This document shows positions 1,945 to 61,531 of a stretch of 64,000 nucleotides of DNA, one piece after another. Source of the stretch: Escherichia phage moskry. The position numbers and the translations under genes were made by a program. The notes beneath the pieces were generated by a model. The model was not told the DNA's origin. It made no database searches and worked only from the letters and a program-made list of their open reading frames with translations. Where the stretch lies: sequence record MN850651.1, one strand, 5' to 3'. The stretch's first letter is position 1; each line of letters opens with the position of its first letter.

Positions 1945-2941
1945 TTCAAGTGTTATCTATCGTGCAATAGTTACATCAAAATTTAGAACAGAGAAAATGC
2001 TGAATTTTTATAATTCAGTTGGGGATGGAGATGATAAGAACTCCATTTATATTACGTTTGGACGTTCAGAGCCTTGGGCGTCAAATGAAAATGAGGTGGG
2101 CTTCGCCCCACCTTATCCTACAGATTCTGTTCTTGGTGTTACTGATATGTGGACCCACATGATGGGTACCGTTAAAGTTTTACCTTCAATGTTAGATTCT
2201 GTTATTCCTAGACGTGATTGGGGAGATGTGCGATATCCAGACCCTTACACGTTTAGAATTAACGATATAGTCGCATGTAATACTGCTCCGTACAACGCGA
2301 CAGAAGTTGGAGCCGGTTGGTTAATTTACCGTTGTTTAGATGTCCCTGACGTAGGGCTCTGTTCAATAGAATCTTTAGATAATAAAGATGAATGTCTTAA
2401 ATTGGGTGGTAAATGGACTCCGTCTGTTCGTTCTATGTCTCCTCCTGAAGGCAGAGGCGATGCTAATGGGGTTATCGAAACCGGTGATGGATATATTTGG
2501 GAATATCTTTATGAGATTCCTGCCGATGTGTCAATTAACCGTTGCACTAATGAATATCTTGTAGTTCCGTGGCCGGAAGAAATTAAAGAAGACCCCACCC
2601 GTTGGGGATATGAAAATAACTTAACTTGGCAACAAGACGACTACGGCTTGATTTATCGTGTTAAAGCTAATACAATGCGGTTTAAAGCATATTTTGATTC
2701 TGTTTATTTCCCTGAGGCAGCTTTGCCTGGTAACAAGGGATTTAGACAGATATCAATTATCGCAAACCCATTAGAAGCTAAGAAAAATCCAAATGACCCT
2801 AATGTTAAAGCAGAAAAGGATTATTACGACCCTAGAGACCTGCAACGTCATTCTGGTGAAATGATTTATATGGAAAACCGACCACCTGTTATTATGGCAA
2901 TGGACCAAACAGAAGAAATTAACATTTTGTTTATGTTTTAA
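1937..2941 (+). CDS. 8: Baseplate wedge protein gp8
   Basis: 334 aa, same length as T4 gp8 and near-identical to its remembered sequence (MNDSSVIYRAIVTSKFRTEK...). Confidence 0.9.
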   Translation: MNDSSVIYRAIVTSKFRTEKMLNFYNSVGDGDDKNSIYITFGRSEPWASNENEVGFAPPYPTDSVLGVTDMWTHMMGTVKVLPSMLDSVIPRRDWGDVRYPDPYTFRINDIVACNTAPYNATEVGAGWLIYRCLDVPDVGLCSIESLDNKDECLKLGGKWTPSVRSMSPPEGRGDANGVIETGDGYIWEYLYEIPADVSINRCTNEYLVVPWPEEIKEDPTRWGYENNLTWQQDDYGLIYRVKANTMRFKAYFDSVYFPEAALPGNKGFRQISIIANPLEAKKNPNDPNVKAEKDYYDPRDLQRHSGEMIYMENRPPVIMAMDQTEEINILFMF

Positions 2942-2944
2942 TTA

Positions 2945-2969
2945 GGGAGCCTTCGGGCTCCCATTTTTG
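2945..2969 (+). terminator. Intrinsic terminator after gene 8
   Basis: Hairpin GGGAGCcuucggGCUCCC followed by a T-run. Confidence 0.6.
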
Positions 2970-2973
2970 TGTC

Positions 2974-2981
2974 TATAAATA
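2974..2981 (+). promoter_or_regulatory. T4-type late promoter TATAAATA upstream of gene 9
   Basis: Exact TATAAATA about 30 nt upstream of the gp9 ATG. Confidence 0.7.
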
Positions 2982-3013
2982 GAATATAATATCGGACAAC
3001 AAAAGGCAGAATT

Positions 3014-3886
3014 ATGGCATTTTTTAAGCAAACTCCTAAACAATTAATCGATACCGGCGAAATTGGTAATGCCTCAACAGGTGATATCTTATTCGACGGT
3101 GGTAATAAAATAAATGACGATATCAACGCTATTTACAATGCATTTGGCGATCAACGTAAAATGGCCGTAGCAGATGGAACCGGACCTACAGGTCAAACTA
3201 TTCATGCCACAGGTTATTATCAAAAAGGAAAGGCGGTCGATTATCAAACTCCTATTAAACCAGGCACTATGCATGATATTGATGCTTCTGATGGTGGTGT
3301 GATTGTTATTATTGACCGTCCTGAATTAGGTGACTCCGTAGAATTCATAAACTCTAATGGGTCTATTTCTGTTAACAATCCTTTAAGTATCCAAGTAACT
3401 GATGGTTCAATTAAAGGTGTTCTTAATAATCTTGTTATTTCCACCCCTTATACCCATGTTGTTCTTCGTTGTGTTGAAATTAATGGGCCGACTTCAGTAT
3501 GGAATTATTCTACTGATAGCATGTTTGGGCAGAAAGAATCTCCTGTCGATGGGACTTGGAGTCTTACAGGAAACACAGTTTCTATTCCTCTGTTTTATCG
3601 CACAGATTATAACATGGCTAAATTGCTTGTTACATGTCAATCCGCTGACGGTAGAAAAATAAAAACATGTGAAATAAATATTCTAATAGATACAATTAAC
3701 TCAGAAGTTCTTTCTACCGAATTTGCAGTAATGCGAGTTGGTAATGTAGATGAAACCGACGAGATTGCTAATATTAGCTTTAGTATTATTAACAACTTTG
3801 CTACTATGACGATTACATCCGATATTATTGGATTACGTTCGGCAGTTAAAATTATCTCAACTCAGAAAATTGGGGTCGCTCAATAA
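3014..3886 (+). CDS. 9: Baseplate wedge / long tail fibre attachment protein gp9
   Basis: 290 aa; N-terminus LIDTGEIGNASTGDILFDGGNKIN matches T4 gp9; late promoter upstream. Confidence 0.9.
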   Translation: MAFFKQTPKQLIDTGEIGNASTGDILFDGGNKINDDINAIYNAFGDQRKMAVADGTGPTGQTIHATGYYQKGKAVDYQTPIKPGTMHDIDASDGGVIVIIDRPELGDSVEFINSNGSISVNNPLSIQVTDGSIKGVLNNLVISTPYTHVVLRCVEINGPTSVWNYSTDSMFGQKESPVDGTWSLTGNTVSIPLFYRTDYNMAKLLVTCQSADGRKIKTCEINILIDTINSEVLSTEFAVMRVGNVDETDEIANISFSIINNFATMTITSDIIGLRSAVKIISTQKIGVAQ

Positions 3887-21360: not shown

Positions 21361-22929
21361 ATGACTACTATCAAAACTAAAGCTCAGCTCGTAGACAAAT
21401 GGAAAGAACTGCTGGAAGGTGAAGGCCTGCCGGAAATCGCTAATAGCAAGCAGGCTATTATCGCTAAAATCTTCGAAAACCAGGAAAAAGATTTCGAAGT
21501 ATCCCCTGAATATAAAGACGAGAAAATCGCTCAGGCATTTGGTTCTTTCTTGACCGAAGCTGAAATTGGTGGTGACCATGGTTATAATGCTCAGAACATC
21601 GCAGCAGGTCAAACCTCTGGTGCAGTAACCCAAATTGGGCCGGCAGTTATGGGTATGGTTCGTCGTGCTATTCCTAATCTGATTGCTTTTGATATTTGTG
21701 GTGTTCAGCCTATGAACAGCCCGACCGGTCAGGTATTTGCTCTCCGTGCAGTATATGGTAAAGACCCTATCGCTGCTGGCGCTAAAGAAGCTTTCCATCC
21801 GATGTATGCCCCAGACGCGATGTTCTCTGGTCAGGGTGCTGCTAAGAAATTCCCAGCTCTGGCTGCTGACACTACTACTGTTGTAGGTGATATCTATACT
21901 CACTTCTTCCAAGAAACTGGTACCGTATATCTGCAAGCTTCTGCTATCGTAACACTTGATTCTAGTGCAACTGATGCAGCTAAATTAGATGCAGAAGTTA
22001 AGAAACAAATGGAAGCTGGTGCACTGGTAGAAATCGCTGAAGGTATGGCTACTTCTATCGCTGAACTTCAGGAAGGTTTCAACGGTTCTACCGATAACCC
22101 ATGGAATGAAATGGGCTTCCGTATCGATAAACAAGTTATCGAAGCTAAATCTCGTCAGCTGAAAGCTGCTTACTCTATCGAATTAGCACAAGACCTCCGT
22201 GCAGTACACGGTATGGATGCTGATGCTGAACTGAGCGGTATTCTGGCTACAGAAATTATGCTAGAAATCAACCGTGAAGTTGTTGATTGGATTAACTACT
22301 CTGCACAGGTTGGTAAATCTGGTATGACCCTGACTCCGGGTTCTAAAGCTGGCGTATTTGACTTCCAGGACCCGATTGATATCCGTGGTGCTCGTTGGGC
22401 CGGTGAAAGCTTTAAATCTCTGTTGTTCCAGATTGATAAAGAAGCAGTTGAAATTGCTCGTCAAACCGGTCGTGGTGAAGGTAACTTCATTATCGCTTCC
22501 CGTAACGTAGTTAACGTACTGGCTTCAGTTGATACTGGTATTTCTTACGCTGCGCAGGGTCTGGCTTCTGGTTTTAATACCGACACTACTAAGTCTGTAT
22601 TTGCCGGTGTACTTGGTGGTAAATACCGCGTATACATCGACCAGTATGCTAAACAGGATTACTTCACCGTTGGTTACAAAGGCGCTAACGAAATGGATGC
22701 AGGTATTTACTATGCTCCTTACGTTGCACTTACCCCGCTGCGTGGTTCCGATCCTAAGAACTTCCAGCCGGTAATGGGCTTCAAAACTCGTTACGGTATC
22801 GGTGTTAACCCGTTTGCTGAAAGTTCCCTGCAGGCTCCAGGTGCTCGCATCCAGTCCGGTATGCCGTCTATCCTGAACAGCCTTGGTAAGAACGCTTACT
22901 TCCGCCGTGTATATGTAAAAGGCATCTAA
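21361..22929 (+). CDS. 23: Major capsid protein gp23
   Basis: 522 aa; near-identical to T4 gp23 along its length. Confidence 0.97.
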   Translation: MTTIKTKAQLVDKWKELLEGEGLPEIANSKQAIIAKIFENQEKDFEVSPEYKDEKIAQAFGSFLTEAEIGGDHGYNAQNIAAGQTSGAVTQIGPAVMGMVRRAIPNLIAFDICGVQPMNSPTGQVFALRAVYGKDPIAAGAKEAFHPMYAPDAMFSGQGAAKKFPALAADTTTVVGDIYTHFFQETGTVYLQASAIVTLDSSATDAAKLDAEVKKQMEAGALVEIAEGMATSIAELQEGFNGSTDNPWNEMGFRIDKQVIEAKSRQLKAAYSIELAQDLRAVHGMDADAELSGILATEIMLEINREVVDWINYSAQVGKSGMTLTPGSKAGVFDFQDPIDIRGARWAGESFKSLLFQIDKEAVEIARQTGRGEGNFIIASRNVVNVLASVDTGISYAAQGLASGFNTDTTKSVFAGVLGGKYRVYIDQYAKQDYFTVGYKGANEMDAGIYYAPYVALTPLRGSDPKNFQPVMGFKTRYGIGVNPFAESSLQAPGARIQSGMPSILNSLGKNAYFRRVYVKGI

Positions 22930-22953
22930 TCTTAATTGATTAAATCTTATTTT

Positions 22954-22980
22954 GGGAGACTTCGGTCTCCCATTTTTGGT
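22954..22980 (+). terminator. Intrinsic terminator after gene 23
   Basis: Hairpin GGGAGACuucgGUCUCCC followed by a T-run. Confidence 0.7.
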
Positions 22981-22981
22981 T

Positions 22982-23251
22982 TTATTTCTGTGCAATTTTG
23001 ATGTAAGTTTTCAAAATATTTTGCCAATTAGGCATACCTTCTTGGATATATGCTGGAGAACCGTCTTTGTTTTTGAATGATGCAAGTTTATCAGTGGCCC
23101 AATAACCTTTAGCTCGAGCTTCAGAATCAACTTTCATCCATACTTTGTTGAAGGCATTACCATTAACTTTTGCACCATATTTTTCTACTAACTTAACTGC
23201 TTCAGCTTCCAGAACTTTTAAAGTATCTCGTAAGAAACGTGCTTTAGTCAT
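22982..23251 (-). CDS. Hypothetical 89-aa protein, antisense to the late cluster, at the position of T4 segD
   Basis: RBS GAGGAG 7 nt upstream of ATG; own early-type promoter at 23282-23311; no recognisable motif. Confidence 0.5.
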   Translation of the reverse strand: MTKARFLRDTLKVLEAEAVKLVEKYGAKVNGNAFNKVWMKVDSEARAKGYWATDKLASFKNKDGSPAYIQEGMPNWQNILKTYIKIAQK

Positions 23252-23281
23252 TTTGTTTACTCCTCTGTAGTTGATAAGTCT

Positions 23282-23311
23282 ATAGTATCATATACCAAAT
23301 ACGTTGTAAAC
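23282..23311 (-). promoter_or_regulatory. Early sigma70-type promoter for the 89-aa ORF
   Basis: -35 GTTTAC, 18-nt spacer, -10 TACTAT. Confidence 0.55.
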
Positions 23312-23317
23312 AATCTT

Positions 23318-23325
23318 TATAAATA
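23318..23325 (+). promoter_or_regulatory. Late promoter TATAAATA for gene 24
   Basis: Exact match about 28 nt upstream of the gp24 ATG; abuts the divergent early promoter. Confidence 0.7.
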
Positions 23326-23352
23326 ATCTATATCACATAAGGAAAAAATGCA

Positions 23353-24636
23353 ATGAGTAAAATCCAAAAATTATTGCGTGAATCTACAACGTCTACTAGC
23401 AACTCAATTGGTCGCCCAAATCTCGTTGCTTTGACTCGCGCTACGACTAAATTAATATATTCTGACATTGTAGCAACACAAAGAACTAATCAACCTGTTG
23501 CTGCTTTTTATGGTATCAAATATCTTAACCCAGATAACGAATTCACATTTAAAACTGGCGCTACTTATGCGGGTGAAGCTGGATACGTAGACCGAGAAAA
23601 AATTACTGAGCTCACAGAAGAATCAAAAGTCACACTAAATAAAGGCGATTTTTTCAAATATAATAATATCGTCTATAAAGTGTTAGAAGATACACCATTT
23701 GCAGATATTCAAGAAAGTGATCTAGAATTAGCTCTTCAGATTGCAGTCGTTCATTTAAAGGTACGGTTATTTTCAGATGCAGCGGTAACAAGCAAATTTG
23801 AAAGCTCTGATAGCGAAATTTCTGATGCAAGATTCCAGATTAATAAATGGCAAACTTCAGTCAAATCTCGTAAACTTAAAACTGGTCTCACGGTTGAATT
23901 AGCGCAAGATTTGGAAGCGAATGGATTTGATGCCCCTAACTTCTTAGAAGATTTGCTTGCTACTGAAATGGCAGATGAAATTAATAAAGATATTCTTCAG
24001 TCTTTAATTACTGTATCGAAACGTTATAAAGTTACTGGAATTACTGACACTGGATTTATTGACTTGAGCTATGCGTCAGCTCCAGAAGCAGGTCGTTCAT
24101 TATATCGAATGGTGTGTGAAATGGTATCACACATTCAAAAAGAGACAACTTATACTGCAACGTTTTGTGTAGCCTCAGCTCGTGCAGCTGCTATTCTTGC
24201 TGCTTCTGGTTGGTTAAAACATAAGCCAGAAGATGACAAGTATCTTTCACAAAATGCTTATGGATTCTTGGCAAATGGATTACCTCTTTACTGCGATACC
24301 AACAGCCCGTTAGATTATGTTATTGTGGGTGTTGTAGAAAATCTCGGCGAAAAAGAAATTGTAGGGTCCATCTTTTATGCTCCATACACTGAAGGAGTAG
24401 ATTTAGATGACCCAGAACATGTCGGTGCTTTTAAAGTTGTAGTTGATCCAGAAAGCTTGCAACCGTCTATCGGATTATTGGTTAGATATGCTTTATCAGC
24501 AAATCCTTACACAGTAGCAAAAGACGAAAAAGAAGCGAGAATAATTGATGGTGGGGACATGGATAAAATGGCAGGACGTTCAGACTTGTCTGTTTTACTC
24601 GGTGTTAAATTGCCTAAAATTATTATAGATGAATAA
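23353..24636 (+). CDS. 24: Capsid vertex protein gp24
   Basis: 427 aa as in T4; gp23 paralogue; late promoter upstream. Confidence 0.9.
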   Translation: MSKIQKLLRESTTSTSNSIGRPNLVALTRATTKLIYSDIVATQRTNQPVAAFYGIKYLNPDNEFTFKTGATYAGEAGYVDREKITELTEESKVTLNKGDFFKYNNIVYKVLEDTPFADIQESDLELALQIAVVHLKVRLFSDAAVTSKFESSDSEISDARFQINKWQTSVKSRKLKTGLTVELAQDLEANGFDAPNFLEDLLATEMADEINKDILQSLITVSKRYKVTGITDTGFIDLSYASAPEAGRSLYRMVCEMVSHIQKETTYTATFCVASARAAAILAASGWLKHKPEDDKYLSQNAYGFLANGLPLYCDTNSPLDYVIVGVVENLGEKEIVGSIFYAPYTEGVDLDDPEHVGAFKVVVDPESLQPSIGLLVRYALSANPYTVAKDEKEARIIDGGDMDKMAGRSDLSVLLGVKLPKIIIDE

Positions 24637-24671: not shown

Positions 24672-25670
24672 TTATGATACTAATTCAATCCATGCAGGAC
24701 GCAGAACATCTTGCACCATTCTGACTAATTCTTTCTTAACAAGATTCGGATTATCAGATGATGTTAATACAATACCTTCACGAGAAGTTTCTTCCAGAAT
24801 ATCTTGAACAGTCAATCCCATCACTTTGCCAAAATCTTTTGGCGTTACAGTCCCAATCTTAGAAATCACATTATTAATACGATTTAATGTAACATAACAA
24901 GCTAGAACATCAAGCAAGTTTTTGTCAGTTTCGGTTAATGGAACCTGAGTTTTAATAGGCTTATCAGACTTTTTCTTTTCACTGAATTTAGAGTTCTTGC
25001 ACTTAATAGCTACACGAGTACCGTTTGGCAGCCATTTAGGGAAACAGGGCTTCAGAACATAACCTTCTGCCGTATTATCGCCAATAACATTAGCATCAAA
25101 TACGCAATTATTTGCTTCGACAAGGTCTTCCGATGCCGTGGCGTTATAAGCGGCTAAGACGGAATCAAGGTCATTTGGAATCATGATAAGAGAATCAAAT
25201 GTTCCACGTCCAAGCATTGGTGCCATTTTAAAACCGAATTCATTACAGAAATCTTGCATTTCGTAATCGGTCAAATACGTATTATCACCACTTTCTGTAT
25301 TGATAAGGATATCGAACACGTAAAAATCTTTTTCACCGTAGTCAACACCTTTCTGGATTCCACCACCAGCGAATTCACCGAATACTTGATATGATACGGC
25401 TCGAGCTGTGTACATGAATTCCTGAACGGCTTTAATAGCTTTATCATACTTCTTGAGTATGATTTCATAACCATAAAAATCTTCTGCTGGAAGAATAGGG
25501 CCTGTGCGCTTGGCGCATGTGACGTTGTCACGTTCAATTATTAACGAGAAGTTAGTCCCATGGATTTTCTCACGTGCTACCCAAACACCAGTAGTCAAAC
25601 CATTAGTGTAGAGTTTTTCAATAAACTTAGAGTTGTAGTGGTTTTCAAGACTGCTGTATTTCTTAAACAT
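24672..25670 (-). CDS. rnlB: RNA ligase 2
   Basis: 332 aa; nucleotidyltransferase motif I KIHGTN; MotA-box middle promoter upstream. Confidence 0.85.
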
Positions 25671-38904: not shown

Positions 38905-38934
38905 ATAGTATCACACATCCATGTGTTTGTAAAC
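38905..38934 (-). promoter_or_regulatory. Early promoter for the alt.-1-like ORF
   Basis: GTTTAC-N18-TACTAT; palindrome ACACATccATGTGT in the spacer. Confidence 0.55.
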
Positions 38935-45807: not shown

Positions 45808-45836
45808 ATAATAACATAACCTGTACCAAAGTAAAC
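45808..45836 (-). promoter_or_regulatory. Early promoter for ORF 45401-45766
   Basis: GTTTAC-N17-TATTAT; -10 sits in the loop of a 10-bp inverted repeat. Confidence 0.55.
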
Positions 45837-46250: not shown

Positions 46251-46280
46251 ATAGTAACACCATCCTACAGGATAGTAAAC
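46251..46280 (-). promoter_or_regulatory. Early promoter for ORF 45841-46209
   Basis: GTTTAC-N18-TACTAT. Confidence 0.55.
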
Positions 46281-49837: not shown

Positions 49838-49867
49838 ATAGTATCACAACTCTACCATGTTGTAAAC
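49838..49867 (-). promoter_or_regulatory. Early promoter for ORF 49572-49808 and downstream DAHP synthase/cd
   Basis: GTTTAC-N18-TACTAT; -10 in the loop of a 9-bp inverted repeat. Confidence 0.55.
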
Positions 49868-53368: not shown

Positions 53369-53398
53369 ATAGTATCACCATCCTTGGTGTTTGTAAAC
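53369..53398 (-). promoter_or_regulatory. Early promoter for alc
   Basis: GTTTAC-N18-TACTAT about 30 nt upstream of the alc ATG. Confidence 0.55.
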
Positions 53399-54551: not shown

Positions 54552-54581
54552 ATTGTACCACAATCCTTGTGGTATGTAAAC
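54552..54581 (-). promoter_or_regulatory. Early promoter for rnlA
   Basis: GTTTAC-N18-TACAAT; inverted repeat CCACAAtccTTGTGG in the spacer. Confidence 0.5.
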
Positions 54582-61502: not shown

Positions 61503-61531
61503 ATAGTATCATGTTTAAAGGAAAAGTAAAC
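61503..61531 (-). promoter_or_regulatory. Early promoter for ORF 61221-61472
   Basis: GTTTAC-N17-TACTAT; 19-nt core identical to the promoter at 23273-23291. Confidence 0.55.

Follow-up and report, generated by a model that had tools for sequence, protein, structure and literature searches.

A probable early accessory cassette in a variable slot separating capsid genes 23 and 24 in Escherichia phage moskry

The late capsid genes 23 and 24 of Escherichia phage moskry are separated by a small open reading frame (ORF) that lies on the opposite strand behind a promoter of its own, which raises the question of whether this element works through its protein, through its antisense transcript or as part of the homing endonuclease cassette that occupies the same position in phage T4. 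The window analyzed here is a stretch of 64,000 nucleotides (sequence record MN850651.1). The reading that best accounts for the locus, with a probability of about 0.6, is a self-contained early cassette of promoter, strong Shine-Dalgarno sequence and 89-amino acid ORF placed in a variable slot between genes 23 and 24, the product being a dispensable accessory protein.

At 90% identity or above, the region 22900-23360 has matches in 144 phage records, nearly all of them Escherichia or Shigella Mosigvirus, with vB_EcoP_EP32B as the closest (99.8%), and on these matches the window is assigned to Mosigvirus, the RB69-like T-even phages. The genes and signals of the locus are arranged as follows.

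21361-22929, plus strand: gene 23, major capsid protein of 522 amino acids, a late gene whose 3' end faces any read-through from the early promoter
22953-22983, plus strand: gene 23 intrinsic terminator from the terminator scan, a C(UUCG)G hairpin GGGAGAC-UUCG-GUCUCCC with T-run
22982-23251 including the stop, minus strand: 89-amino acid ORF from the ORF list, ATG start, basic, PHROG 6003
23260-23265, minus strand: Shine-Dalgarno GAGGAG, 8 nt before the ORF ATG, read from the sequence
23282-23311, minus strand: early-class sigma-70 promoter, GTTTAC, 15 nt, TG-A-TACTAT
23318-23325, plus strand: T4-type late promoter TATAAATA serving gene 24, whose ATG at 23353 lies 27 nt further on
23353-24636, plus strand: gene 24, capsid vertex protein of 427 amino acids, a late gene served by the late promoter
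24672-25670, minus strand: rnlB, the flanking gene beyond gene 24

A 156-amino acid TTG-initiated ORF (22525-22995, minus strand) opposite the 3' end of gene 23, overlapping the end of the 89-amino acid ORF, is dropped as a downstream gene; by inspection it is judged to mirror the reading frame of gene 23, which is highly expressed. Gene 24, whose product is matched by about 1,400 records, is present once in the window; a tandem duplication (24a/24b) is present beside the slot in Dhakavirus JS98 (L003, 335-2899) and in two metagenomic T-even lineages (L014, 1338-3897, and L017, 1337-3901).

The ORF placed on the minus strand between the two capsid genes by an earlier note on this DNA is confirmed at 22982-23251. 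It is an already catalogued gene, an ordinary accessory gene and not a new kind of element: over 100 phage records list it as a hypothetical protein, PhAPEC2_170 being described as similar to RB69ORF188c, and the SA79RD record (OL960576) already annotates a minus-strand T4-type early promoter, the late TATAAATA and, at the hairpin, a terminator for each strand. The protein matches PHROG 6003 with an E-value of 2.6e-45, residues 1-89 aligning with profile positions 1-90 of 90, and the same family is the sole one matched by the proteins of JS98, ABPH49, P0018 and P0019. The PHROG members RB69ORF188c/189c, JS98 orf173, PhAPEC2_170 and SA79RD_184 are all annotated as hypothetical. A further family member of 90 amino acids, P0006 (L017, 4001-4273), carries the name "NADPH-dependent curcumin reductase CurA" in its JGI source, an evident misannotation.

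Lack of conservation in relatives, together with missing transcript or peptide evidence, had been named in the earlier note as what would speak against the ORF; the tblastn search finds a homologue in 240 phage records, with at least 80% query coverage in 238 of them. About half are Mosig-type at 90% identity or above, and the remainder are 31-37% identical. Within Mosigvirus the hypothetical protein of EP32B is 100% identical and most other copies are 96-99% identical. The position and strand between genes 23 and 24 are the same in JS98 and AnYang (Dhakavirus) and in lineages L014 and L017 at 35-60% identity, the Mosigvirus and Dhakavirus copies keeping location and orientation at about 35% identity and the L017 copy being 60% identical to that of the window. 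Family members range in length from 83 to 93 amino acids despite only 31-36% identity between them, and Gly-31, Asn-32, Asn-35 and Gln-70 are invariant throughout, with Asn-30 nearly so. By the Nei-Gojobori method, dN/dS comes to 0.09-0.10 when JS98 is compared with AnYang or ATK47 and to 0.14 when the window is compared with L017, values that mark the ORF as a real gene under protein-level purifying selection.

Broken copies are present in three phages. In the RB69 reference (NC_004928, L027, 5292-5532) the gene is split into ORF188c (41 amino acids) and ORF189c (29 amino acids) by +1 and -1 indels together with a cluster of substitutions, a state that reflects either a lab-strain pseudogene or old sequencing errors. 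The copy in phage mogra is frameshifted by a 1-nt deletion in an A-run, and in both RB69 and mogra the indels may reflect faulty sequencing instead of true loss. The copy in 310Ecol104PP is broken too.

The strong ribosome-binding site claimed for the ORF is found as GAGGAG, and GGAG stands at the same place in the compared relatives. The promoter, described earlier as early-type GTTTAC-N18-TACTAT, is located where it had been placed, with the -35 hexamer GTTTAC at 23306-23311 and the -10 hexamer TACTAT at 23282-23287 (both minus strand), and has in addition a TG before the -10 that the earlier note did not mention and that makes this an extended -10. A generic promoter scan reports the same promoter as TTTACA-17-TACTAT with TG. 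Transcription would start near 23275 (minus strand). The -35, the extended -10, their spacing, the AT-rich upstream region TTATTTATAAAGATT and the strand common to the other early promoters are those of a T4-type early promoter. Matches to GTTTAC-N13-16-TG-N-TANNNT number eight in the window, against 0.16 expected, and all eight lie on the minus strand; the scan gives, besides the promoter of the ORF, seven further members of the class.

38905-38934, minus strand: early-class promoter
45808-45836, minus strand: early-class promoter
46251-46280, minus strand: early-class promoter
49838-49867, minus strand: early-class promoter
53369-53398, minus strand: early-class promoter
54552-54581, minus strand: early-class promoter
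61503-61531, minus strand: early-class promoter, sharing TGATACTATAGACTTATC (-10 and start region) with the promoter at 23282-23311

Judged by this excess of same-strand matches, the ORF promoter belongs to the phage's own early-promoter class, beyond chance.

The intergenic region was aligned for the window, JS98, L014, L017, ATK47 and T4, and a frame common to all six is apparent. It comprises the stop codon of gene 23, a hairpin of the C(UUCG)G type that has its T-run on the plus strand only, a minus-strand cargo, GGAG, the early promoter and TATAAATA. The promoter in the aligned slots reads (G/A)TTTACA-N17 with TG-N-TA(C/T)TAT. It is kept in JS98, L014 and ATK47 and is homologous to the promoter upstream of T4 segD; the exception is L017, which retains the -10 as TG-T-TATTAT and is absent from the pattern-scan matches because its -35 reads GTGTAC. 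On this alignment the layout of divergent promoters and hairpin is a conserved slot frame in T4, Mosigvirus and Dhakavirus, not a peculiarity of the window.

The comparison of the cargo across T4-like phages that had been proposed earlier gives four states of the slot: empty, segD only, ORF only, and ORF with segD. The empty state is that of RB32 (Tequatrovirus, DQ904452, L023, 1418-1500), in which the slot is 83 nt long and holds the hairpin GGGACC-TTCG-GGTCCC, 17 nt and TATAAATA. No antisense promoter is found in these 83 nt, from which it follows that the early promoter travels with the cargo and is not needed to express genes 23 and 24. In Klebsiella phage KP27 (Slopekvirus, NC_020080.1) a SegD-like gene (43% identity) lies at 132982-133584 on the plus strand, directly upstream of gene 24 (133719-134936).

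T4 carries segD between genes 23 and 24, as had been stated, and carries it on the minus strand too. The T4 cassette encodes a free-standing GIY-YIG homing endonuclease and corresponds to the window in its slot, its strand and the UUCG hairpin at its 3' end by the gene 23 stop, as well as in a homologous early-type promoter, ATTTACA-17-TG-A-TATTAT, beside TATAAATA (L019, NC_000866, 1234-1323). The cargo differs: the two products have no significant similarity, BLASTP of the 89-amino acid protein against T4 SegD aligning 17 residues at an E-value of 0.035, and no GIY-YIG or other endonuclease domain is matched in the protein among the Pfam or PHROG profiles. The earlier description of the ORF as unrelated to segD therefore stands. 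The idea that it replaces segD does not, since Mosigviruses of the ATK47 type hold both genes in tandem behind one promoter. ATK47 (NC_055708.1, L020) shares at least 99% identity with the window in both gp23 and gp24, and its slot at 2401-3487 places 1087 nt between genes 24 and 23 that are unannotated in RefSeq and contain two genes.

2501-2767: Dhaka-type copy of the ORF, 88 amino acids, PHROG 6003
2771-3430: SegD homologue of 219 amino acids, 3 nt after the small ORF, 58% identical to T4 SegD (E 1e-87), matching homing-endonuclease PHROGs

As they coexist in ATK47-type phages, the ORF and segD are not alleles of each other. The GenBank version of ATK47 (KT184309) labels gp24 itself "homing endonuclease". 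In a sliding comparison ATK47 matches the window at 95-100% identity along genes 24 and 23. At the 5' UTR of the ORF the identity changes to 85-98% with JS98 DNA and about 45% with the window; about 660 nt absent from both the window and JS98 come next, and window-like sequence resumes in the final few dozen bases of gene 23. This clean mosaic suggests an endonuclease-linked exchange of the cassette between genera. JK45 and LF82 phages have the same adjacent tandem coordinates, and an ATK47-type SegD at 95% identity or above is present in about 33 records. The arrangement is consistent with segD having invaded downstream of a resident small ORF and using the promoter of that ORF, the divergent ORF allele then having moved between genera together with segD. 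The T4 arrangement could have come from one like that of ATK47 through loss of the small ORF; TAAAAATGAA around the ORF start resembles TAAAATATGAA around the segD start, and the 5' UTRs of T4 segD and the L017 ORF are alike. Endonucleases of the SegD family may have landed repeatedly at the 23-24 junction.

These observations bear on the first alternative, that the ORF is part of segD biology, serving as its target, as an allele that confers protection or immunity, or as a passenger in co-conversion, so that its presence and its two divergent allele types reflect endonuclease-driven gene conversion. The ATK47-type phages, near-identical to the window in genes 23 and 24 and yet with a Dhaka-type ORF joined to a segD homologue, fit this explanation, as do the same tandem coordinates in JK45 and LF82 phages and the homologous promoter and 5' UTR used by T4 segD. 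It is nevertheless unlikely. In the sampled carriers (the window, SA79RD, PhAPEC2, JS98, AnYang, L014 and L017) the ORF is present with no adjacent segD, T4 has segD and lacks the ORF, the homologues outside the T-even phages have no endonuclease neighbor among their called genes, and a dN/dS of about 0.1 points to selection acting on the protein.

The activity of the promoter can be considered from the T4 side. A segD-specific promoter could not be identified according to a 2010 review, in which very low transcript levels were assumed (PMC2988022), and in a 2022 omics study segD RNA is classed as early and the SegD protein is detected by mass spectrometry (PMC9697503 supplement). The comparison made here gives T4 segD a candidate promoter, and by analogy the early segD RNA provides indirect support for early activity of the homologous and more consensus-like promoter in the window.

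The early promoter and the gene 24 late promoter had been described as lying back to back, and they are found 6 nt apart, TATAAATA being separated by that distance from the divergent -35 hexamer and overlapping the AT-rich region upstream of it. TATAAATA occurs 17 times in the window against 7.2 expected, and upstream of gene 24 it is kept in every compared lineage, including the empty slot of RB32. At the other end of the ORF, the hairpin GGGAGAC-TTCG-GTCTCCC at 22953-22972 is followed by TTTTTGGTTTT on the plus strand and by AAAATAAGATTT on the minus strand, with folding energies of -18.3 and -17.0 kcal/mol, respectively. The stem is identical in four lineages and the T-run is never on the strand of the ORF. 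The earlier statement that the only nearby hairpin terminates the plus-strand gp23 transcript accordingly agrees with the T-run, which is on the plus strand alone. Read on the minus strand, the stem runs into AAAAUAAGAUUU with no U-tract and is not an intrinsic terminator, and the same holds in JS98, L014, L017, ATK47 and T4; the WebGeSTer minus-strand terminator annotated in OL960576 is not supported by the tail sequence. A terminator scan of the minus strand inside gene 23 yields no good terminator.

Near-identical C(UUCG)G hairpins (GGGAGAC-TTCG-GTCTCCC) recur in the window at about 2945 (plus strand), 46335 (minus strand) and 61580 (minus strand) and elsewhere. A "second place" reported by megablast in many records is accounted for by these repeated UUCG hairpins and a similar early promoter elsewhere, and a paralogue as its cause is rejected. 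Rfam over 22500-23800 gives chance-level matches only, on the hairpin.

Because the hairpin is canonical for the plus strand alone, antisense read-through into gene 23 is plausible, and to this extent the earlier proposal that early transcription could read into the 3' end of gene 23 holds; as the purpose of the element it does not, and the read-through looks like a tolerated by-product. The alternative in which it is the purpose takes the locus as a transcription-level element, early minus-strand RNA passing the hairpin and damping premature expression of genes 23 and 24 by antisense or interference, and occupancy of the early promoter occluding the late one. In addition to the missing U-tract in all lineages, the lack of a good minus-strand terminator in gene 23 and the 6-nt distance between the -35 hexamer and TATAAATA, this explanation has a precedent in the early antisense transcription of late regions that is classical in T4, described in the "anti-late RNA" literature of the 1970s; the literature search found nothing under that term. 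It is distinctly improbable in view of the strong protein-level purifying selection on the ORF, the variation of the cargo by lineage while the capsid genes stay 95-100% identical, the expression of genes 23 and 24 in RB32 from a slot with no antisense promoter, and the family members outside the T-even phages, which have no capsid gene opposite.

These non-T-even members, at 31-40% identity, are found in Acinetobacter phage ABPH49 and in metagenomic contigs of 33-141 kb, rV5-like phages being among the carriers of the family. In four of the five contexts the gene lies far from capsid genes within a long array of tiny co-oriented genes that have no known domains, the usual look of an early region, and the fifth copy comes after a tail-fibre-like gene. 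A GC-rich hairpin lies downstream of every one of these copies, and a sigma-70-like promoter precedes most of them. Taken with the dN/dS values and the empty RB32 slot, these contexts argue that the selected function resides in the protein, whatever lies opposite, and that the element is unlikely to exist for the sake of antisense transcription.

The structure prediction that had been suggested was run with AlphaFold2 and gives a confident fold for the 89-amino acid protein (pLDDT 86.7, pTM 0.71) from only 11 sequences, with a predicted topology of helix 3-25, helix 31-48, β-hairpin 56-70 and helix 76-88. That the ORF is instead a decaying remnant or chance frame with no functional product is scarcely credible, the broken copies in the RB69 reference, mogra and 310Ecol104PP and the lack of a known function or relative being outweighed by the intact, full-length frame in 238 of the 240 records, the length held at 83-93 amino acids at 31-36% identity, the dN/dS of about 0.1, the fold prediction, and the conserved Shine-Dalgarno sequence and promoter.

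The remote-homology search that had been proposed, carried out as profile searches, returns no relative of known function. Pfam gives sub-threshold matches only (DUF4859, DUF5380 and Ca_bind_SSO6904); DUF4859 is rejected at 17.4 bits against a cut-off of 22.6, the predicted fold being a helical bundle with a β-hairpin. The best PDB sequence-profile match, the RFC1 BRCT domain, has an E-value of 0.12 over 27 residues and is likewise rejected. NCBIfam yields nothing meaningful for the protein, and PADLOC, which consists of defence-system models only and covers anti-defence poorly, has no matches for three family members. A profile search of 1.84 billion representative proteins recovers only about eight real relatives, all within the small family, the repeat proteins P0017 and P0020 from the same search being spurious; with a wider profile, six further phage proteins are added, all of them small (83-93 amino acids) and unnamed. 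Foldseek with the predicted model finds nothing in the PDB at an E-value of 0.001 or below, and in BFVD finds one family member and no other. On these searches PHROG 6003 is a small phage-only family. In the literature search the gene is mentioned only in ORF lists with no paper devoted to it, and no Mosigvirus transcriptome was found. The net charge counted from the sequences is about +8 for the window protein and about +3 for the JS98 homologue; since charge is not conserved in the family, no claim of nucleic acid binding is made. The invariant residues are likely to form a putative functional surface, composed of the N-G-N..N loop and the invariant Gln.

Under the preferred reading of a self-contained early cassette, host RNA polymerase would transcribe the ORF in the first minutes of infection. 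With no canonical intrinsic terminator, the ORF mRNA would end by Rho-dependent termination in the untranslated gene 23 antisense and/or by trimming as far as the stable 3' hairpin; Rho would find a substrate in the untranslated antisense RNA, and the hairpin of -17 kcal/mol could set the mature 3' end. The product would act as a protein and not via the RNA. Most tiny early T-even proteins are small binding proteins aimed at host or defence components, and by analogy the 89-amino acid product is most likely a small binding protein directed at a component of the host or of anti-phage defence. That the gene is dispensable is supported by its absence from T4 and RB32 and by the frameshifts in the RB69 reference and mogra, which are possible sequencing errors.

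A broader reading that joins these points is put forward tentatively and is doubtful as a whole. PHROG 6003 would be an as yet uncharacterised protein of early host takeover or anti-defence, with a fold that has no informative relative and with the N-G-N..N loop and invariant Gln as a possible binding site; the 23-24 slot would undergo segD-linked replacement of whole alleles in the direction from Dhakavirus to Mosigvirus; and the "promoterless" segD of T4 would have inherited the early promoter and translation start of the ORF after deletion of the latter.

In itself the gene is one more uncharacterised small early T-even gene and carries little weight. The most useful new points are the promoter frame common with T4 segD, the tandem haplotype of ORF and segD, and the cross-genus allele swap. 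The four natural slot states in otherwise near-identical genomes form a convenient system for studying endonuclease-linked cassette exchange, and the family is a clean candidate for early-phage-protein screens its members being small, conserved and dispensable, with a confidently predicted fold and a distribution limited to phages.

Compared with known systems, the locus is closest to the hypothetical genes of PHROG 6003, with which it is the same gene in the same position and on the same strand, nothing setting the window copy apart. It resembles T4 "anti-late" transcription in that an early promoter is directed into a late gene with no canonical terminator between; unlike in that system, the evidence here points to the protein as the selected product. 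The small early T-even genes with their own promoters, which form part of the accessory "plastic periphery" of T4-like genomes (PMC1524935), are likewise tiny, lineage-variable and dispensable, and are placed on the early strand behind a sigma-70 early-class promoter. The window ORF differs from these in its setting, standing alone in the late capsid cluster and converging on gene 23 instead of lying in a block of early genes.
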